From Acidobacteriota bacterium (GTDB lineage: Bacteria; Acidobacteriota; Vicinamibacteria; Marinacidobacterales; Marinacidobacteraceae): a stretch of 64,000 bases of DNA. Positions within the stretch are counted from its first letter, which is position 1. Each line of letters opens with the position of its first letter. Where the stretch lies: positions 71,583 to 135,582 of the forward strand of contig JAJDVI010000012.1 of NCBI GenBank assembly GCA_022826195.1, in the 5' to 3' direction. The notes under the pieces are model-generated. The model searched no databases. It had not been told where the DNA came from and worked only from the letters and a program-made list of their open reading frames with translations. Shown one piece after another: positions 2,738 to 58,945 of the stretch. A program made the position numbers and the translations under genes.

Positions 2738-2795
2738 TGCCGGCCTGGAACGCCGGTCTCCAGACCGACACCGCGGCGCCCCCCCACCGGGAGAA
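2738..2795. repeat. REP-like GC-rich palindromic repeat (reverse-complement orientation of the 32.5 kb copy)
   Basis: GCCGGCCTGGAACGCCGGTCTCCAGACCG...CGCGGCGCCC matches RC of 32540-32600 element. Confidence 0.6.
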
Positions 2796-2874
2796 CTGGC
2801 GCGCCGCGCACGTCGTAAAGCCCACCCGGCAAAGGCGGCTCCTACCTCGGCGTTGCGCTCGAGAGTGGAGGTGA

Positions 2875-2915
2875 CGCAACGGCTTGGAACGCCGGCTTCA
2901 GCCGGCACAGCAGCG
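2875..2915. repeat. REP-like repeat, core CGGCTTGGAACGCCGGCTTCAGCCGGCAC
   Basis: near-identical core at 6640-6670 and reverse-complemented at 17120-17150. Confidence 0.65.
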
Positions 2916-3003
2916 CGCAGCGCTGCGGGCGGTTCATCGCCACGGATGCTCAGGCGGCAGGGAGACGGGACCCGGCGGCCAGGGCTCCTACAATCCGCCA
3001 CCC

Positions 3004-7132: not shown

Positions 7133-7530
7133 CCTTCATCGAGACGAACGTCTTCCTGTTCGCGGTCGGACGACCGCATCCCTTGAGGGAGGAAGCCCTT
7201 CGCGTGCTCGACCGGGGGATGCGGAGCAGTACGGAGTTCGTTACCTCGGCGGAGGTCCTTCAGGAGGTGCTCCACGTGTTTTCGCGGCGCCGACTCCTGG
7301 AGCGTTGCGACGACGCGTTCGGACTGGTCGAACGGGTGGTCTCGGATGTGTGGTCGCTGGAGCCGGAGGATGTCGCGCTTGCCCGGACATTGGCCGACCG
7401 CCACCCCGAGCTCGAAGCGCGCGATCTCGTCCATATGGCCTGTTGCCTGCGGCGGCAGGCGACCGATCTCGTCACCTTCGACCGCGGTCTCGCCGCCGCC
7501 TGGGCGCGGCGGTCGCGATCCCGGCCGTAG
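7129..7530 (+). CDS. vapC: PIN-domain ribonuclease toxin VapC
   Basis: GTG start overlapping vapB stop; PIN acidic residues (IETN, EVLQEV, ARDLV, TFD); ~133 aa. Confidence 0.7.
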   Translation: MTFIETNVFLFAVGRPHPLREEALRVLDRGMRSSTEFVTSAEVLQEVLHVFSRRRLLERCDDAFGLVERVVSDVWSLEPEDVALARTLADRHPELEARDLVHMACCLRRQATDLVTFDRGLAAAWARRSRSRP

Positions 7531-9204: not shown

Positions 9205-9362
9205 TCAGGCATGTGTCTAATCCGGGTTCGGAGGGCGAGGCATGTGTCCTATTGGGAGTCGGCTGAATCCGGGCATGCGTCAATTCCGGGTTCGGGAAGC
9301 GAGGCATGTGTCCATTTCGGAGCCGGCTGAATCCGGGCACGTGTCCATTGGGAGCCCTGCCG
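9205..9362. repeat. Tandem repeat, ~63-bp unit (two alternating ~32-bp subunits) x ~2.5, lower GC than surroundings
   Basis: subunits GCATGTGTC(T/C)AAT..CCGGGTTCGG.A.GCGAG and GCATGTGTCC.ATT.GGAG.CGGCTGAATCCGG repeated at 9207, 9238, 9270, 9302, 9334. Confidence 0.7.
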
Positions 9363-9394: not shown

Positions 9395-9475
9395 TGCGAC
9401 GTGCGCGGCGCGGCGCGCCGCGCGTGCCGGTCTGAAGACCGGCGGTCCCGGCCGGCGCGCCATGGGGAGGCGGTT
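9395..9475. repeat. REP-like repeat (GTGCCGGTCTGAAGACCGGCG variant)
   Basis: GTGCGCGGCGCGGCGCGCCGCGCGTGCCGGTCTGAAGACCGGCGG aligns with 32540-32590. Confidence 0.65.
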
Positions 9476-17066: not shown

Positions 17067-17094
17067 TCGCGGTGCGCCTTCTCGGCGGATTGGA

Positions 17095-17160
17095 TTTGTC
17101 CCGCCGCCCGCCTGCGGCGGGCTGTGCCGGCTGAAGCCGGCGTTCCAAGCCGTTACTGCG
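17095..17160. repeat. REP-like repeat plus GC hairpin
   Basis: GTGCCGGCTGAAGCCGGCGTTCCAAGCCG is the exact reverse complement of the 2880 core; preceded by hairpin GCCCGCCTGCGGCGGGC. Confidence 0.7.
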
Positions 17161-28074: not shown

Positions 28075-29310
28075 ATGAATCCCTCAAACCCCGCTGACCG
28101 GCTCGCCGAACTCAAGATCGGCGAGGAGCAGCGCGGCTCGCGTCCGTTCGCGCTCGTCACCGCGATCATCGGTGGACTGCTGGTGATCGGGGGCGGAGTC
28201 TCGGCAGTCTTCCTGCTGGGTTCGGAGCCGGAGGTCTTCGCGGTCCGGACGGCGCGGGTGCGCTCGATCTCGGTGGACGCCGGGACCACGGTGCTGAACG
28301 CGAGCGGTTACGTCACGGCGCGGCGCCAGGCCACCGTTTCGTCCAAGACCGCGGGGCAGATCACCGAGATCGCCATCGAAGAGGGCATGGAGGTGACCGC
28401 GGGCCAGGTGCTCGCCCGTCTCGACTCCTCCAACCTGGGGCGGACCCTCCGCCTCGCGGAGGCGCAGACCGCGGCGGCCGGAAAAGCGGTCCTCGAGGTG
28501 GAGGCCCAGCTCGCCGAAGCCCGCCTGCGCCAGGAGCGGACCCGGCGCCTCGTGGAGCAGCAGGTCGCCGGACAGGCCGACCTCGACCAGGTGAACGGCG
28601 AGGTCGCCACCCTCGAGGCGCGCATCGAGCGCCAGCGCGAGGACATTCGCGTCTCGGAGCGGCAGGTGGAGGTCATCCGCCAGCAGATCGAGGACATGGT
28701 GATCCGGGCGCCGTTCGACGGCGTCATCACCGCCAAGAACGCCCAGCCCGGCGAAATGATGTCCCCCATCGCCGGCGGCGCCGGGTTCACCCGGACCGGA
28801 ATCGGGACGATCGTGGACATGACCTCGCTGGAGATCGAAGTGGACGTCAACGAGGCATACATCAACCGGGTCTCTCCGGAGCAGCCGGTGGACGCCGTCC
28901 TCGACTCCTACGACGACTGGACGATCCCGGCCCGGGTGATCGCGATCATCCCGACCGCCGACCGGGACCGCGCCACGGTGCGGGTGCGGATCGGTTTCGA
29001 ACAGCTCGACCCCCGGATCCTGCCGGACATGGGCGTCAAGGTGAGTTTCCGGTCCGCGGAGGCGGAGCCCGAAGCGGCTCCCGAGGGTCTGCTCGTGGAC
29101 GCCGCGGCGGTGTTCCCGGACACCGGCCGGGACCTCGTCTATCTGGTCCGCGACGGCCGGGTCCAGCGCCGGGCGGTACGGCTCGGGGACCGGCGCGGGT
29201 CCGATGTGTTCGTCCTCTCCGGACTGGTGGAGGGTGACCGGGTAGTCGTGGAGGGCCTCGAGGGACTCGAGGACGGCGCCGAAGTCGAGGAAGCGACCGC
29301 GGCGCCCTAG
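28075..29310 (+). CDS. HlyD-family periplasmic adaptor (membrane fusion protein) of ABC/efflux transporter
   Basis: N-terminal TM anchor, long coiled-coil, beta-barrel/lipoyl regions typical of MacA-like MFPs. Confidence 0.8.
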   Translation: MNPSNPADRLAELKIGEEQRGSRPFALVTAIIGGLLVIGGGVSAVFLLGSEPEVFAVRTARVRSISVDAGTTVLNASGYVTARRQATVSSKTAGQITEIAIEEGMEVTAGQVLARLDSSNLGRTLRLAEAQTAAAGKAVLEVEAQLAEARLRQERTRRLVEQQVAGQADLDQVNGEVATLEARIERQREDIRVSERQVEVIRQQIEDMVIRAPFDGVITAKNAQPGEMMSPIAGGAGFTRTGIGTIVDMTSLEIEVDVNEAYINRVSPEQPVDAVLDSYDDWTIPARVIAIIPTADRDRATVRVRIGFEQLDPRILPDMGVKVSFRSAEAEPEAAPEGLLVDAAAVFPDTGRDLVYLVRDGRVQRRAVRLGDRRGSDVFVLSGLVEGDRVVVEGLEGLEDGAEVEEATAAP

Positions 29311-29342
29311 CAGCCGGTGAACGGAGTCACCTGGAGAGTCGA

Positions 29343-30122
29343 ATGAGCGAGACGAGTTTTTCCGACGCGGCGGCCGGCAACGGCGCCGCTACTGAGGCCA
29401 TGGTGGACGTGCGAAGCGTCCGCCGGACCTTCCAGCGGGGCCGCACGCCGGTTCCGGTGCTGAAGGACCTCACGCTCCGCATGGAGAAGGGGGAGTTCCT
29501 GGCGCTGATGGGACCTTCGGGCTCCGGGAAGTCGACGCTGCTCAACCTGATCGCCGGGCTCGACCGGCCGACCGGCGGCGAGGTGATCGTGGGCGGCTCG
29601 GAGATCCACCGCCTTTCCGAGCGGAAGCTCGCCGGCTGGCGGGCCCGCAACATCGGCTTCGTCTTCCAGTTCTCGAACCTGCTCGGAGCGTTGAGCGCCG
29701 AGCGGAACGTGGCGGTGCCGCTGCTGCTGACCTCGTTCTCGGCCCGCGAGCGCCGGCGCCGGGTGGACATCGCGCTCGAGATCGTGGGGCTGTCGGATCG
29801 TGGAAAACACCGCCCCCGGGAGCTCTCGGGCGGCGAACAGCAGCGGGTCGGCATCGCCCGCGCGCTGGTGAACGATCCGATGCTCCTCGTCTGCGACGAG
29901 CCGACCGGCGACCTCGACCGGGCGACGAGCGGCGAGATCCTGGATCTGCTGGTCGCTCTCAACCGGGACCACGGGAAGACCATCCTGATGGTCACCCACG
30001 ACCCGGTGGCGGCCGAACGGGCATCGCGCACCCTGCACCTCGAGGACGGCCGGCTCGCGGACTGCGGGCACGACGGAACGGTCGTGGTGCCGGTCCACGA
30101 ACCGGCGGGAGCGGCGGTGTGA
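29343..30122 (+). CDS. ABC transporter ATP-binding protein (MacB/LolD-like)
   Basis: Walker A GPSGSGKST, signature LSGGEQQRV, Walker B LLVCDEPTGDLD. Confidence 0.85.
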   Translation: MSETSFSDAAAGNGAATEAMVDVRSVRRTFQRGRTPVPVLKDLTLRMEKGEFLALMGPSGSGKSTLLNLIAGLDRPTGGEVIVGGSEIHRLSERKLAGWRARNIGFVFQFSNLLGALSAERNVAVPLLLTSFSARERRRRVDIALEIVGLSDRGKHRPRELSGGEQQRVGIARALVNDPMLLVCDEPTGDLDRATSGEILDLLVALNRDHGKTILMVTHDPVAAERASRTLHLEDGRLADCGHDGTVVVPVHEPAGAAV

Positions 30123-31279
30123 GTTCCTTCACCCTGATCAGCGCGGCGCTCCGCCGCAAGAAGACGCGGACCTTCCTGACCTTCTCGTCGGTGGTGTTCG
30201 CGTTCCTGATCTTCGGGGTCCTCTCGATGCTCCAGACCGCGTTCTCCATGGGCGCGGAGATCGCCAACGAGGACCGCCTGGTGGTGCGCCACCGGGTTTC
30301 CCTCTTCCAGCTCCTGCCGCAGTCCTACGAGGCCGACATGGAGGAGATCCCCGGCGTCGTGGACGCGATGCACATGACGTGGTTCGGCGGCGTCTACCAG
30401 GACCCGTCCAACTTCTTCATGCAGTCCCCGGTGGAACCGGCGGAGTACCTCGACATGTATCCGGAGGTTTCCGTTCCGGAGGAGGCGAAGCTGCGCTGGA
30501 TCGAGACCCGGAACGGAGCGATCGCGGGCCGGGCGCTCGTCGAACGCCTGGGTTGGGAGGTCGGCGACCGGATCCCCATCCAGCCGACGATCTGGCGACA
30601 GGACGGCCGTGGCGACGACGCCTGGGAGTTCGAGCTGGTCGGCGTCTACGACGCGGACGTGGAGGGCTTCGACCAGACCCAGTTCCTCTTCCGCTACGAC
30701 TTCTTCGACGAGGCCCGTTCCTTCGGGCGCGGACAGGTGGGCTGGTTCATGGTGCGGATCGCCGACCCGGACCGGGCTCCCGAGATCGCCGCCGCGATCG
30801 ACGACACCTTCCGGAACTCCGCCGCCGAGACCAAGAGTGAATCCGAAGGGGCGTTCGCGGCCGGGTTCGCCAACCAGGTCGGGAACCTGGGACTGATCGT
30901 GACCTCGATCCTGGCGGCGGTCTTCTTCACCATCCTGCTGGTCGCGGGCAACACCATGGCGCAGTCAGTGCGCGAACGGATCGGCGAGATCGGGTTGCTC
31001 AAGGCGCTCGGCTTCACCTCCAGCCGGGTGCAGCGGCTGGTGCTCATGGAGTCGGTGACCCTGGTGACGACCGCGGGATTCCTGGGTATGGTCCTGGCCG
31101 TGGGCTTGGAGCGCGTGCTCCGCCCGGCCCTGGCCGCCTACTTCCCGGGCCTCTTCCTGCGGCCCGAGGATCTGCTGCTGGGGCTCGGCCTGGCGGTCGT
31201 GACCGGCCTGGTGGTCGGCATCTTTCCCGCGCGGCGGGCGATGCGCCTCGAGACGGCGCTCGCCCTGCGGCGGCTGTAG
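30119..31279 (+). CDS. ABC transporter permease, FtsX/MacB-type (1 of 2)
   Basis: N-terminal TM, large periplasmic domain, C-terminal 3 TM FtsX domain. Confidence 0.75.
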   Translation: MSSFTLISAALRRKKTRTFLTFSSVVFAFLIFGVLSMLQTAFSMGAEIANEDRLVVRHRVSLFQLLPQSYEADMEEIPGVVDAMHMTWFGGVYQDPSNFFMQSPVEPAEYLDMYPEVSVPEEAKLRWIETRNGAIAGRALVERLGWEVGDRIPIQPTIWRQDGRGDDAWEFELVGVYDADVEGFDQTQFLFRYDFFDEARSFGRGQVGWFMVRIADPDRAPEIAAAIDDTFRNSAAETKSESEGAFAAGFANQVGNLGLIVTSILAAVFFTILLVAGNTMAQSVRERIGEIGLLKALGFTSSRVQRLVLMESVTLVTTAGFLGMVLAVGLERVLRPALAAYFPGLFLRPEDLLLGLGLAVVTGLVVGIFPARRAMRLETALALRRL

Positions 31280-31292
31280 GGGAGTCGGCACG

Positions 31293-32489
31293 ATGCGGCT
31301 TGGTTCCTTCCTTCGCCAGTGCCAGGCGGTGACCCGCTACAATCTGGAGACGATCTGGGAGCGGCGCGCCGTTTCGGTGGTCGCGATCTTCGGCATTGCC
31401 GGAGTCGTCGGCGTGATGGTGGCCGTCCTGTCGATGGCGGCCGGTTTCCGTTCGGTGGTCACCGGGCAGGCCCGCGACGACGTGGCGGTGGTGCTCCGGA
31501 GCGGCTCCACCGGCGAGTCGGACAGCATCCTGAACCATCAGGACATCCAGGTCCTCTGGGAGGCGCCGGGAGTGGCGCGCGGCCCCGACGGCCCGCTCGT
31601 CTCGCCGGAGCTGTTCGTGATCATCGACCGCAAGAAGATCGGCGCCGGCACCGACGCCAACGTCCCGCTCCGGGGCGTCGAGACGGCCGGTTTCGCGCTC
31701 AGGGAGCAGTTCGAGATCGTCGAGGGCCGGAACTTCGAACCGGGCCGGAACGAGGTGATCGTGGGCGACGGGGCGGCCGGCGCCTTCGAGGGCCTGTTGG
31801 TCGGAGACCGGATCGACGTGGGCCGCACCTCCTGGGAGGTGGTCGGGCGCTTCACTGCGGGCGGCGGGGTTGCCGAATCGGAGATCTGGACCGACACCCG
31901 CGTGCTCCAGGCGATGTACCAGCGGGGGAACTCCTGGAACGTGGCCCTGGTGCGGCTCCGGGACGCCGAGGCGTTCGAGGGCTTCGAGGCGGCGCTCACC
32001 GACGATCCGCGGGTCAGCCTCGGCGCCCGCCGGCAGACGGCCTACATGGCGGCGCAGTCGGAGCCCATCGAGGTGTTCATCTCGGTGGTCGGCTGGATCA
32101 TCGTGGTCATGATGTCGGCGGGCGCGGTGTTCGCGGCGCTCAACACCATGTACGCGGCGGTGTCCTCCCGCTCGCGCGAGATCGCGACCCTGCGCGCGCT
32201 GGGTTTCTCGCGGTTGCCGGTGGTCGTCTCGGTGATGATCGAGTCGCTCGTCTTCGGGCTCATCGGCGCGGCGGCGGGCGGCGCGGCGTCGTGGTTCCTG
32301 TTCGACGGGTTCCGGGCCGCGACGATCAACTGGGCCTCCTTCAGCCAGGTGGCCTTCGCCTTCGAGGTGACGCCGGAACTGCTCGTCCAGGGGACCACCC
32401 TGGCCCTCGTGATCGGGACGATCGGCGGTTTCCTGCCCGCGGTGGGCGCCGCCCGCCGCAGCGTCGTGGGGGCACTGAGGGAGCAGTAG
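31293..32489 (+). CDS. ABC transporter permease, FtsX/MacB-type (2 of 2)
   Basis: same architecture as preceding gene; ends ...GGFLPAVGAARRSVVGALREQ. Confidence 0.75.
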   Translation: MRLGSFLRQCQAVTRYNLETIWERRAVSVVAIFGIAGVVGVMVAVLSMAAGFRSVVTGQARDDVAVVLRSGSTGESDSILNHQDIQVLWEAPGVARGPDGPLVSPELFVIIDRKKIGAGTDANVPLRGVETAGFALREQFEIVEGRNFEPGRNEVIVGDGAAGAFEGLLVGDRIDVGRTSWEVVGRFTAGGGVAESEIWTDTRVLQAMYQRGNSWNVALVRLRDAEAFEGFEAALTDDPRVSLGARRQTAYMAAQSEPIEVFISVVGWIIVVMMSAGAVFAALNTMYAAVSSRSREIATLRALGFSRLPVVVSVMIESLVFGLIGAAAGGAASWFLFDGFRAATINWASFSQVAFAFEVTPELLVQGTTLALVIGTIGGFLPAVGAARRSVVGALREQ

Positions 32490-32499
32490 GGGCCCCCCT

Positions 32500-32595
32500 T
32501 TCGCTGACCCCGGGCACCCCCGGCACGGCCTCCCAGCGCGGTGCGCGGCGCGGAGCGCCGCGCGTGCCGGTCTGGAGACCGGCGTTCCAAGCCGG
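32500..32595. repeat. REP-like repeat (GTGCCGGTCTGGAGACCGGCGTTCCAAGCCGGC variant)
   Basis: GGTGCGCGGCGCGGAGCGCCGCGCGTGCCGGTCTGGAGACCGGCGTTCCAAGCC; related copies at 9400, 2745 (rc), 58790 (rc). Confidence 0.7.
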
Positions 32596-32659
32596 CGGCT
32601 TCCTCCCGGCGGTGGGTGCCGCCCGCCGCAGCGTGGTGGGCGCCCTCCGCGAGCAGTAG
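32594..32659 (+). pseudogene. Relic duplicate of the 3' end of the preceding ftsX-like gene (encodes identical 21 aa, out of frame with the gene)
   Basis: GGCGGCTTCCTCCCGGCGGTGGGTGCCGCCCGCCGCAGCGTGGTGGGCGCCCTCCGCGAGCAGTAG vs 32433-32489: 9 nt differences, all synonymous. Confidence 0.6.
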
Positions 32660-32787
32660 CAGCGGCCGTAGCCGCCTTCTCGCCGCTACCTCGACGCGCC
32701 TCCTCCCGTGGCGGCAGGGCCGCGGTCCATTGTGGACACGCTGTGACTACATCGTTAGAATGGAGTCCTCCGAGGAGGCGCCGAACC

Positions 32788-33066
32788 GTGGAATTCGCCC
32801 TGCGCGACGCAAAGGCGCGACTCTCTGAACTCGTCGGCGCGGCGGTGGCTGGAGAGCGGGTCGTGATCACGCGGTATGGCGAGCCCGTCGTGGAACTCGT
32901 GCGGTGGCGCCGGCGTGGCGCTCTCGATCTCGAGCGGCTCGCGAAGGTGTGCGCGGAGCACGGCATCGAAGAGGCGCCGCCGGACGAAGCCGAGGCGATG
33001 ATCGCCGCGTTTCACGATCCGGCACTCAGCCGTCAGGTGCTGGGGTTCGAGACGGAAAGCGACTGA
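32788..33066 (+). CDS. Phd/YefM-family antitoxin
   Basis: VEFALRDAKARLSELV...GERVVITRYGEPVVELV; GTG start; directly upstream of a PIN gene. Confidence 0.6.
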   Translation: MEFALRDAKARLSELVGAAVAGERVVITRYGEPVVELVRWRRRGALDLERLAKVCAEHGIEEAPPDEAEAMIAAFHDPALSRQVLGFETESD

Positions 33067-33080
33067 GCGCGAGCCGGTCC

Positions 33081-33476
33081 GTGGGCGTTCTTCTCGACAC
33101 GTCCTACCTCTACCGGTTGATGAGGGCCCGGGCGAGTCTGTCCGGGAGCGAGCGGCAGTTTCTTGAGCGCCAGGACACCCCGATCCACGTCAGCGCGGTT
33201 TCCATTTGGGAAATGCGGCTGAAGTACCAGGCGCGCGACCGGCTGGGCCGGCGCAAGAGCCCTTTCGATCCACGAGAGGTGGTTGCCGCGCTGACCAGGC
33301 TGAACGTGGTGCTGCTGCCGCTCACCATGCGCCATGCGGCCGAGCGGCTTCGCGTTCCCATCACGCACCGCGATCCCTTCGACGAGCTGCTCCTGGTTCA
33401 GGCCCAGGTGGAGGGGCTGCGTCTGCTGACCGCGGACGAGCACCTGGTCGGCCATCCCTTGGCCATCACCCCGTAG
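33081..33476 (+). CDS. vapC: PIN-domain toxin VapC
   Basis: LLDTSYL, IWEM, HRDPFDELL, TADEHL acidic PIN residues; ~131 aa. Confidence 0.7.
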   Translation: MGVLLDTSYLYRLMRARASLSGSERQFLERQDTPIHVSAVSIWEMRLKYQARDRLGRRKSPFDPREVVAALTRLNVVLLPLTMRHAAERLRVPITHRDPFDELLLVQAQVEGLRLLTADEHLVGHPLAITP

Positions 33477-33537
33477 CGGCTTCCCGGACGCGCCCCTGAA
33501 CGGAGGGAGTGACCGGGATCTCCTGACGCGGGCGGTT

Positions 33538-35661
33538 TCAGTTCAGGCCGCGCCGCCGGAGCAGGGGCTCCACCTCCGGGTCCCGCCCGCGGAAGGTGCG
33601 GAAGAGGTCCATGGCCTCGATGCTGCCCCCCTTCGAGAGCAGGGTCTCCCGGAAATGGTCGCCGTTCTCGCGCAGGAGGCCGTCGTTCTCCCGGAACCAC
33701 TCCACGGAGTCGGCGTCGAGCACCTCGCTCCAGATGTAGGAGTAGTAGCCGGCCGAGTAGCCGCTGCTCCAGATGTGGGAGAAGTAGGTGGTGCGGTAGC
33801 GCGGGGGCACCGGCGCGAACGCGATGCCGGCCTTCTCGAGCGCCGCTTCCTCGAACGCGAGCACCCCGTCCGCATCGGGGGTCTCCCCGACCCCGAGCTG
33901 ATGCCACGCGAGGTCGAGCAGGGTGGCGGCCAGGTACTCGGTGGTGGCGAAGCCCTGGTTGAAGGTGCGCGCCGAGAGCACCCGGTCGAGGAGGTCGCCC
34001 GGGATCGGCTCGCCGGTCTCGTGGTGGACGGCGTAGTTCCGGAGCACCTCCGGCCAGGTCGCCCACATCTCGTTCACCTGCGAGGGGTACTCGACGAAGT
34101 CGCGGGGAACGGAGGTCCCGGCGAAGTAGGGATAGCGGACGTTCGAGAAGAGGCCGTGCAGGGCGTGCCCGAACTCGTGGAACAGGGTGATGACCTCGTC
34201 GAAGGTCAGCAGCGTAGGTTCGCCCTCCGGGGGCTTGGGGACGTTCAGGTGGTTGGCGACCACCGGCTGCGTGCCGAGCAGGCCGGACTGGGAGACGTAC
34301 GCGTTCATCCAGGCGCCGCCCCGCTTCGACGGCCGGGCGTAGAAGTCGCCGATGAAGAGCCCGAGCGGGCTGCCGTCCTCCTCGAACACCTCCCAGATGC
34401 GGACGTCGGGGTGATAGACGGGCAGTTCAGGCCGCTCCTCGAAGGTCAGGCCGAAGAGCTGGTTGGCCGCGAAGAAGACCCCGTTCACGAGCACCCCGTC
34501 CATCTCGAAATAGGGCCGGAGCTCGGAGGCGTCGAAGGAGAACCGCTGGGCTCGCAGCTTCTCGGAGTAGTAGGACCAGTCCCAGGCCGCGATCTCGATG
34601 TCGGCGCCCTCCGAACGGGCCAGTTCCGCCAGGTCGTCCGCCTCGCGGCGGGCGTTCGCCACCGCCCGGGGGGTGAGGCCGGACAGCCGCCCGTTCACCG
34701 CCTCGATGGTCTGCGCCGTCTGTTCCTCGAGGATGAAGGCGGCGTGGTGCGGGTAGCCGAGGAGCGCGGCGCGCTCGGCGCGGAGGGCGGCGATCCGCAC
34801 CACCGCTTCCCGGTTGTCGTGCTCGCCGCCACGGCTGCCGCGCGCGAGCGAGGTCTTCATGATCCGCTCGCGGAGCGCGCGGTCCTCGAGGGAGGAAAGG
34901 GCGGGCTGGCCGCTGGTGTTGAGGAGCGCAATGACGTACTTGCCTTCGAGGTCGCGGGCCTTCGCGGCCTCGGCCGCCGCGGCGATTTCACCCTCGGAAA
35001 GTCCGGCGAGTTCCTCGGCGGAATCCACCACCACGGCCGAGGCGTTCACCTCGTCGAGGGTGTTCTCGCTGAAGGCCGCCGAGAGCGAAGCGAGTTCCGC
35101 GTTGATCTCCCGCATCCGGTCCTTTTCCGACTCGGAGAGCAACGCCCCGGCGCGGGTGAAGTCCCGCCGGTACTGCTCCACGAGGCGGACCTCTTCGGGC
35201 GAGAGGCCGAGGTCGTTCCGGGACTCGTAGAGCGTGTCCACCCGGGCGAAGAGATCGGCGTTCAGGAGGATCTGGTCCGAGTGGGCCGCCAGCTTCGGCG
35301 CCATCTCGGCGCGGATGGCGTTGATCTCGTCGTTCGTGTCGGCGGAGGACAGGCTGAAGAAGACCCGCGCCACCCGGTCGAGCAGCCGGCCCGACCGCTC
35401 GATGGGCACCAGGGTGTTCTCGAAGGTGGCCGGTTCGGAGGACGACGCGATGGCCTCGATCTCCTCGAGTTGCTCGGCCATGCCGCGCTCGAACGCCGCC
35501 CGGTAGTGCCCGTCCTCGATGAGGTCGAAATGGGGCAGTCCGTAGGGCAGCGTGCTCTCGGTGAAGAACGGGTTATCGCCCATCTCGGTCTCGGGGGTTC
35601 CGCCGCACCCGGCGGCGAACACGAGAGCCGCTGCTACAGCTCGCAGGGTCCTGCTGGTCAT
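33538..35661 (-). CDS. dcp: Peptidyl-dipeptidase Dcp / oligopeptidase A family (M3 metallopeptidase), lipoprotein
   Basis: HEFGHALH zinc motif, M3 family length (707 aa), lipobox LVFAAGC. Confidence 0.85.
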   Translation of the reverse strand: MTSRTLRAVAAALVFAAGCGGTPETEMGDNPFFTESTLPYGLPHFDLIEDGHYRAAFERGMAEQLEEIEAIASSSEPATFENTLVPIERSGRLLDRVARVFFSLSSADTNDEINAIRAEMAPKLAAHSDQILLNADLFARVDTLYESRNDLGLSPEEVRLVEQYRRDFTRAGALLSESEKDRMREINAELASLSAAFSENTLDEVNASAVVVDSAEELAGLSEGEIAAAAEAAKARDLEGKYVIALLNTSGQPALSSLEDRALRERIMKTSLARGSRGGEHDNREAVVRIAALRAERAALLGYPHHAAFILEEQTAQTIEAVNGRLSGLTPRAVANARREADDLAELARSEGADIEIAAWDWSYYSEKLRAQRFSFDASELRPYFEMDGVLVNGVFFAANQLFGLTFEERPELPVYHPDVRIWEVFEEDGSPLGLFIGDFYARPSKRGGAWMNAYVSQSGLLGTQPVVANHLNVPKPPEGEPTLLTFDEVITLFHEFGHALHGLFSNVRYPYFAGTSVPRDFVEYPSQVNEMWATWPEVLRNYAVHHETGEPIPGDLLDRVLSARTFNQGFATTEYLAATLLDLAWHQLGVGETPDADGVLAFEEAALEKAGIAFAPVPPRYRTTYFSHIWSSGYSAGYYSYIWSEVLDADSVEWFRENDGLLRENGDHFRETLLSKGGSIEAMDLFRTFRGRDPEVEPLLRRRGLN

Positions 35662-58699: not shown

Positions 58700-58945
58700 C
58701 CCCGGTTCGGAGCTTCCGGAGCGCCGGCCTCCGGCCGGCATCGCGCGGTAGCGCGAAACCCGCGCCGATGGCGCCCCCGGCTTGGAACGCCGGTCACCAG
58801 ACCGGCACGCGCGGTGCTCCGCACCGCGCACGGCGCAGCCCCCTGCGGAAAGGTGGCTCTCGCCTCGGCATGAGGCTCAACCGCACTGATGGCGCCGCCG
58901 GCCTGGAACGCCGACGTCGGGTCGGCGCCCGCGAACCGTCATCGG
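58700..58945. repeat. Cluster of three or more REP-like modules (mosaic element)
   Basis: 58715-58775 near-identical to 6702-6760; 58776-58840 is the reverse complement of the 32540-32600 type; 58880-58925 is a third GCCGGCCTGGAACGCCG copy. Confidence 0.7.

Follow-up and report, generated by a model that had tools for sequence, protein, structure and literature searches.

A duplicated permease gene end at a REP-like repeat in an uncultured member of the Vicinamibacteria, a probable chimera of two diverged alleles

The 3' end of a permease gene is present twice in a 64,000-nucleotide stretch of DNA (hereafter the window) from contig JAJDVI010000012.1 of the Acidobacteriota assembly GCA_022826195.1. 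The two copies lie on either side of a short hairpin-forming repeat, here termed REP-like (repetitive extragenic palindromic). The first copy is the end of the functional gene. The second copy is out of frame and is followed by a toxin-antitoxin (TA) module. The locus is probably a chimera of two diverged orthologous alleles, in which a one-sided, microhomology-mediated illegitimate recombination left one of the two gene ends as a non-coding relic. The duplication, its junction, the two parental layouts and frequent recombination between alleles at this locus are observed, whereas the recombination mechanism is what we infer from them, and either direction of transfer would fit. The features that make up the duplication are the following (positions are those of the window).

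31293 to 32489, plus strand: second FtsX/MacB-type permease gene (398 amino acids), the last gene of its operon, with the Pfam domains MacB_PCD and FtsX.
32424 to 32489, plus strand: copy 1, the functional last 21 codons and TAG stop of the permease gene, identical in the related loci L028 and L014.
32490 to 32535, no strand assigned: spacer of 46 nucleotides directly 3' of the stop codon, with a weak resemblance to the left flanks of REP copies elsewhere.
32536 to 32599, plus strand: REP-like two-hairpin repeat, a 58-nucleotide core (to 32593) followed by the GGCGGC of the consensus tail GGCGGCGCCATC; the remaining tail is gone.
32593 to 32599, no strand assigned: junction microhomology CGGCGGC (7 nucleotides), common to the REP tail (AAGCC-GGCGGC-GCCATC) and the permease gene (AT-C-GGC-GGC-TTC).
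32594 to 32659, plus strand: copy 2, the relic end of 21 codons and TAG, out of frame and predicted to be untranslated, a truncated 3' end of the TA-type allele described below.

An earlier reading made from the sequence alone (the sequence-only reading) had noticed the duplicated gene end, and re-alignment confirms it. The copies are identical at 56/66 nucleotides, or over 67 nucleotides at 85% if the preceding C is counted. Their local alignment score is 47, compared with 16.0 +/- 2.1 (maximum 25) in 1000 dinucleotide shuffles, and chance resemblance is excluded. Copy 1 begins at 32424 rather than at 32433 as first given, and the copies differ at 10 nucleotides in 9 codons rather than at 9 nucleotides. 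All ten differences are synonymous, as had been claimed, but they are not all third-position changes; one arginine codon (AGG vs CGC) differs at positions 1 and 3, which gives one first-position change. Copy 2 thus encodes the same 21 amino acids and TAG stop as the permease C-terminus at 32424-32489, GGFLPAVGAARRSVVGALREQ-TAG. It is out of frame with the gene, as previously described, because the two copies are offset by 170 nucleotides. The 104 nucleotides between them are made up of the spacer (32490-32535) and the 58-nucleotide repeat core (32536-32593).

The divergence between the copies is that of coding sequences. Ten substitutions placed at random would be synonymous throughout with a probability of approximately 5e-6 (0.296^10), an outcome that did not arise in any of 500,000 simulations. 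The right boundary of the similarity is precisely the stop codon, and the left boundary is C-GGCGG. Synonymous-only differences and a similarity that stops at the stop codon indicate that each copy evolved as the end of a gene, with downstream DNA unrelated to that of the other, in agreement with the coding constraint that the sequence-only reading had proposed for both.

The orthologous operon was compared in 20 species-level genomes, metagenome-assembled genomes (MAGs) of Vicinamibacteria and Candidatus Marinacidobacterium, and in further metagenome contigs; these loci are referred to by L numbers. The permease orthologues share 67-96% amino acid identity and are uniform in length. The real gene ends closest to copy 2 are those of L010 (64/66 nucleotides), L012 and L040 (62/66) and L009 (61/66). 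Copy 1 is identical only in L028 and L014, which share the event, and matches the gene ends of other lineages at no more than 61/66 nucleotides. Both copies are therefore ordinary orthologous gene-end variants.

The point at which the REP meets copy 2 is precisely defined. The family alignment gives a subfamily consensus of TTCCAAGCC followed by GGCGGCGCCATC or near variants, and the independent tail copies compared were two in L018 and the window copies at 58795, 2758 and 9396. Both the window and L028 leave this consensus exactly after GGCGGC and continue as permease gene (TTC CTC CCG...). The same GGCGGC forms the Gly-Gly codons that open copy 2. The sequences flanking the shared CGGCGGC are unrelated on both sides, and its 7 nucleotides fall within the range of 3-10 nucleotides expected of a microhomology between otherwise unrelated sequences. 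The REP thus appears to be truncated at the joint of two alleles, and the location of the REP at the junction, noted from the sequence alone, is confirmed.

The structure is not confined to one assembly. Contigs of different samples (L001, L002 and L028) span all of it, and the junction between REP and copy 2 is crossed by L031-L037; this junction is identical in L001, L002 and L028-L037. The exact permease protein and the exact PIN-domain toxin of the TA module are also present on contigs of several samples. The spanning contigs carry small strain-specific polymorphisms, such as an 11-nucleotide deletion in hairpin 1 of the REP in L028. In the relic of L028 (2014-2080 of that locus), three sites are in the copy-1 state. 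This relic also has the sole change that is unique to one strain's relic, CGC to TGC, and that change is non-synonymous. Copy 2 is thus unconstrained, and the earlier view that one copy is a relic is supported. The relic of L001 (4300-4366) has CTG CCC, with two 5' sites in the copy-1 state. The copy-1 states in the 5' part of both relics are consistent with short-patch gene conversion between the repeats or with ancestral polymorphism.

Both parental configurations were found among the relatives, matched by layout only. In L018 (REP-type) the gene end is followed by 53 nucleotides, the same REP (core 97% identical), GGCGGCGCTATCGG... and the peptidase M3 gene, without duplication. In L016 (identical to L007), L022 and four contigs from Joint Genome Institute (JGI) metagenomes, L045-48 (TA-type), the gene end is followed by approximately 85 nucleotides and the same TA family with a conserved promoter block, without a REP. 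The two layouts and the microhomology junction bear out the proposal that the copies were brought together by recombination. The sequence-only reading had regarded copy 2 as the original terminus of the gene; the evidence shows only that copy 2 belongs to the TA-type allele and copy 1 to the REP-type allele. It had also suggested that orthologous loci in relatives be compared for presence or absence of the insertion, and L018 does have a single end with the REP and without duplication.

The permease and peptidase M3 genes are separated by a hypervariable junction (window 32490-33537), at which the relatives (L006-L044) have at least eight kinds of content, from stop codons spaced by 1 nucleotide to islands. 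Contents other than the two parental layouts are listed here.

L009-L012 and L040: permease and peptidase M3 stop codons 1 nucleotide apart.
L017: spacer of 36 nucleotides.
L006, L013 and L041: other REP types.
L019 (7263-7567) and L020 (7235-7567): tandem arrays of 139-166-nucleotide units, approximately 95% identical, directly 3' of the permease stop.
L008 and L021: dehydrogenase gene.
L043/44: DNA similar to insertion sequences (IS).
L024: accessory island.

Further close relatives (P0007, P0002 and P0012) add compact layouts, other REPs and IS-like DNA.

Recombination between alleles is frequent at this locus. The window and L028 are approximately 87% identical across the operon to position ~32300 and 96-100% identical thereafter, through the gene end, REP, relic, TA module and peptidase M3 gene. 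The switch near 32300 is a homologous-recombination breakpoint inside the permease gene between two co-occurring strains. After the chimera arose, the operon of one lineage was replaced by a diverged allele via a normal homologous crossover. Within this population, alleles with 10-15% divergence are therefore routinely exchanged. Identity to 16-27 relatives, profiled by segment and on a sliding basis, is likewise strongly mosaic. This mosaic identity and the switch from 87% to 96-100% point to an adjacent homologous anchor for a one-sided joint and to recombination of diverged homologous DNA at the locus.

A second relic was found in L024, whose permease is 81% identical at the amino acid level. 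It is a 78-nucleotide relic of that locus's own gene-end type, located 36 nucleotides past the functional stop (7233-7311). Its alignment score is 45, compared with 17.6 +/- 2.4 in shuffles. The relic is decayed, with three indels and a lost stop codon, and represents an independent, older event with the same topology. Such scars therefore recur at this site, and the intact relic of the window is young. The relic is followed by the accessory island of L024 (7769-10687), which encodes an IrrE-like peptidase, an XRE helix-turn-helix protein, multiubiquitin, a ThiF-like E1 protein with DUF6791, and DUF6527 proteins.

A single exchange between related strains would account for the chimera. One end of the incoming segment would have recombined in ordinary homology. 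The other end would have been joined illegitimately at CGGCGGC, which is present both in the REP tail and 66 nucleotides before the permease stop. The joint may have formed by homology-facilitated illegitimate recombination (HFIR) or by a switch of template during replication at the REP hairpins, and the product would be the same: the full gene with copy 1, the spacer, the truncated REP, the last 66 nucleotides of the other allele as copy 2, and the TA module. The 10 synonymous differences would represent divergence built up while both copies were coding ends in separate lineages. Two mirror histories fit equally well. An allele with the operon and REP may have entered a TA-type resident, or a REP-type resident may have received a fragment that began in the permease 3' end and included the TA module. 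A product would survive only if its permease was intact, so the joint would lie beyond a complete gene end and the other end would be left as a relic.

Several observations weigh against this account. A near-identical parent allele of either type was not present among the genomes found, P0007, P0002 and P0012 included, and for this reason the parents are assigned by layout and not by identity. The spacer of L018 is diverged, and the TA modules of L016 and L022 are just 74-77% identical in nucleotides. In the JGI metagenomes, the pattern of the relic and spacer junction gave 0 matches, and the TA promoter pattern gave just the four L022-like contigs, in each of which an intact gene end is directly followed by the TA module. 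The identity profiles against the 16-27 relatives contain no clean foreign tract adjoining the junction, and the direction is not assignable from them. The REP tail consensus is based on about five independent copies. Finally, the relics of the window lineage and of L024 start within approximately 12 nucleotides of the same gene position, which is somewhat unexpected under random joints and could hint at a local hot spot.

The foremost alternative is that the duplication arose in situ, by slippage or REP insertion, and that the functional gene with copy 1 was later overwritten by a REP-bearing diverged allele. The ingredients of the second step are at hand, given that a later operon replacement is documented by the crossover near 32300, that a REP-bearing orthologous allele exists in L018, and that the copy-1 states in the 5' parts of the L001 and L028 relics could mean that the copies exchange sequence. 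Nonetheless two events are required, with an unknown mechanism for a 66-nucleotide duplication flanking 104 nucleotides; no flanking duplication occurs at the other REP copies; and the truncated REP tail and the microhomology are explained directly by a single illegitimate joint. We regard this history as unlikely. The sequence-only reading had also suggested that the REP inserted with a long target duplication whose copies diverged later. This is rejected because a non-coding copy would not gather 10/10 synonymous changes, and the other REP copies again have no flanking duplication. A target-site duplication of a transposon or miniature inverted-repeat transposable element was also considered and discarded; the repeats are 66 nucleotides long and 15% diverged at synonymous sites only, and other REPs lack such flanks.

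The duplication could also be the remnant of a site-specific integration, in which an integrase-borne island brought a replacement gene end and was later mostly deleted, leaving attL and attR 104 nucleotides apart. The topology would fit, with a new functional end followed by the displaced original end and the original downstream DNA. The site is an insertion hot spot, and the two independent relics have nearly the same start. However, just 104 nucleotides separate the repeats and no integrase is encoded there, and in neither case does the repeat pair enclose the accessory DNA (TA module or L024 island). An identical core beyond ordinary coding conservation is not evident, and the 104 nucleotides consist of a spacer and a dispersed REP, the latter being also present at the undisturbed orthologous site of L018. 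An integration remnant is accordingly improbable, with clearly poorer prospects than a duplication in situ. An integrase-mediated island in a gene 3' end would have the duplicated ends on either side of an element that encodes a site-specific recombinase; the locus does not match this, since the copies enclose only the spacer and REP and leave the TA module and the L024 island outside.

The sequence-only reading had favored a donor in the same genome, a paralogous ftsX-like gene that supplied the gene end together with its downstream REP. Permease paralogues are common in such genomes, and REP copies are dispersed in this one. No second copy of the 66-nucleotide segment was found in the 64-kb window by blast with either copy, and the C-terminus of the neighbouring permease 1 is unrelated to that of permease 2. 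A pattern search gave one orthologous locus in each of the 20 related genomes, and among the protein matches listed, identity falls from the orthologue level (at least 67%) straight to 58% or less. In L018 the orthologous gene end is itself followed by the same REP, so the source is a diverged orthologous allele of a related strain or species. A paralogous donor is very improbable.

An assembly artefact, whether two concatenated strain haplotypes or a collapsed or expanded repeat, has a negligible chance of being correct: many short-read contigs do break in the REP or duplicated region (L003, L004, L005, L014 and L031-L037), as is expected for repeats, but contigs that cover the full structure come from at least three samples and from different assembly sources, share one junction and carry strain polymorphisms, the L028 deletion among them.

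The recurrence of relics raises one further possibility, that the last 70-80 nucleotides of the permease gene or the adjoining REP hairpins are a preferred site of breakage or template switching for repeated swaps of accessory cassettes (the TA module and the defence-like island). The sole hint is the proximity of the two independent relic starts, and we consider such a preference distinctly doubtful. If true, a duplicated end would permit a cassette swap without inactivation of the transporter.

The proposed joint resembles HFIR, in which joints form at 3-10-bp microhomologies beside a homologous anchor (PMC6382021, citing de Vries & Wackernagel 2002; Prudhomme et al. 2002). The organisms summarised in PMC6382021 are Acinetobacter baylyi, Streptococcus pneumoniae and Pseudomonas stutzeri. 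As the process is outlined in that summary, homology anchors one end of the exchanged DNA, while a short G+C-rich microhomology (3-10 bp; 7 here) provides the joint at the other; heterologous DNA is trapped beside a conserved gene, and insertion-duplication scars are possible. The event proposed for the window has the same features. Unlike the transformation experiments covered there, the present case is deduced from a comparison of natural genomes in uncultured Vicinamibacteria. It also differs from the summarised cases in that alleles of one locus were joined to each other, which is why the scar takes the form of a duplicated gene end.

Three other systems share part of this layout. Enterobacterial REP sequences can be join points of chromosomal rearrangements, for example tandem duplications in Salmonella, and in the window, too, the exact point of a rearrangement is occupied by a dispersed intergenic repeat that forms hairpins. 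In the classical enterobacterial cases two REP copies recombine, whereas in the window the REP tail is joined to coding sequence via a chance identity of 7 nucleotides. The window family is also unrelated in sequence to enterobacterial REP. Integrase-borne islands at tRNA, tmRNA (transfer-messenger RNA) and some protein genes displace 3' gene ends at attachment sites. They likewise leave a functional end beside a displaced duplicate whose divergence is limited by coding constraint, but the window duplicates do not flank accessory DNA, have no recombinase gene between them and are 104 nucleotides apart. The minimal mobile elements of Neisseria are variable cassettes between conserved flanking genes that are exchanged by homologous recombination. 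As in the window, a single intergenic site between two conserved genes has contents that differ by strain. In minimal mobile elements both crossovers are homologous and scarless, whereas one junction in the window is illegitimate.

The other features of the locus, which has a G+C content of approximately 70% across the window, are these.

28075 to 32489: four-gene operon of an HlyD-like adaptor, an ABC ATPase, permease 1 and permease 2 (both permeases FtsX/MacB-type).
32660 to 32787, plus strand: spacer and predicted TA promoter/operator, with TGGACA-17 nucleotides-TAGAAT at 32733-32761.
32788 to 33066, plus strand: Phd/YefM-family antitoxin gene (92 amino acids as called in L001; Pfam PhdYeFM_antitox), with an open reading frame (ORF) start possibly at 32743.
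33081 to 33476, plus strand: PIN-domain (VapC-like) toxin gene (Pfam PIN).
33538 to 35658, minus strand: peptidase M3 gene (Pfam), the conserved convergent right-hand neighbour.

Directly 3' of copy 2 are 83 nucleotides (32660-32742), and then the promoter-like site. The promoter block at 32733-32761 is kept in the TA-type alleles of relatives. The adjoining small antitoxin and PIN toxin genes, with a promoter-like site of their own, identify the module as a type II TA system. A match to the relic or REP tail on the right of the module (33477-33537) was judged to be chance; it is approximately 10 nucleotides long and not conserved in L028. In compact relatives, the peptidase M3 stop is 1 nucleotide from the permease stop. 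Copy 2 also closes a 446-codon open frame (31319-32659, plus strand) that overlaps the true permease gene in another frame. This open frame is an effect of high G+C and an annotation trap. Gene calls at contig edges in L032-L036 annotate copy 2 as a partial gene.

The REP-like label is justified by dispersed hairpin-forming copies in the window. In addition to the copy at the junction, copies are located at 58779-58836 (minus), ~9396-9453 (plus) and ~2742-2798 (minus), and partial or variant copies at 2881-2938 (minus) and 17094-17151 (plus). There are at least five copies in 64 kb, on both strands and between likely coding ORFs, and the repeat is present in L018 as well. The spacer at 32490-32535 shares the motif G..CC.CCTTT.C...GGG with the left flanks of the REPs, a weak similarity. 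An Rfam search of 32300-32900 matched no family. The two hairpins are seen in the predicted fold, and the REP region folds no better than shuffles at its G+C content (z = 0.05). No T-tailed terminator was found. Scans for nearby direct repeats of at least 35-40 nucleotides in the 64-kb window and all fetched loci otherwise gave just tandem REP arrays and internal protein repeats. A general REP-associated duplication of gene ends was therefore rejected, since these scans gave the present case alone.

Other small repeats occur near REP copies. A second small repeat, CCAGTTCTCCCGGTGGGGG, lies inside hairpin 1 of the REP copy at 2742-2798 (minus) and is also present in intergenic DNA of relatives (L013 ~7260 and L020 ~7290), which suggests that it is a separate small mobile or repeated unit. 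Two tandem 64-nucleotide units, 84% identical, are located at 9208-9335, just upstream of the REP copy at ~9396. In the MAG GCA_022824885.1, an IS is inserted in hairpin 2 of the REP between the copies, at the equivalent of window position ~32571-32575. Its terminal inverted repeats, CTCATCTTTAACAGTTT, are perfect and 17 bp long, and the target duplication, TCTGG, is of 5 bp. The IS ends were read at L003 (end of JAJDZA010000010.1) and at L031/L037 (start of JAJDZA010000044.1). The IS is absent from the window, and its repeat ends were found nowhere in it.

The duplicated end is an ordinary recombination scar of a known process, and not a new system or mechanism. No effect on the function of the permease or of the TA module is evident. 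For annotation, the relic lies in a long open frame of a 70% G+C genome, and short-read assemblies tend to break at the site. The synonymous-only divergence shows that the event united two alleles that had evolved as coding ends in separate lineages, and the decayed relic of L024 illustrates what such scars become over time. The locus provides a clean natural example of accessory DNA shuffled between diverged strains of uncultured Vicinamibacteria.

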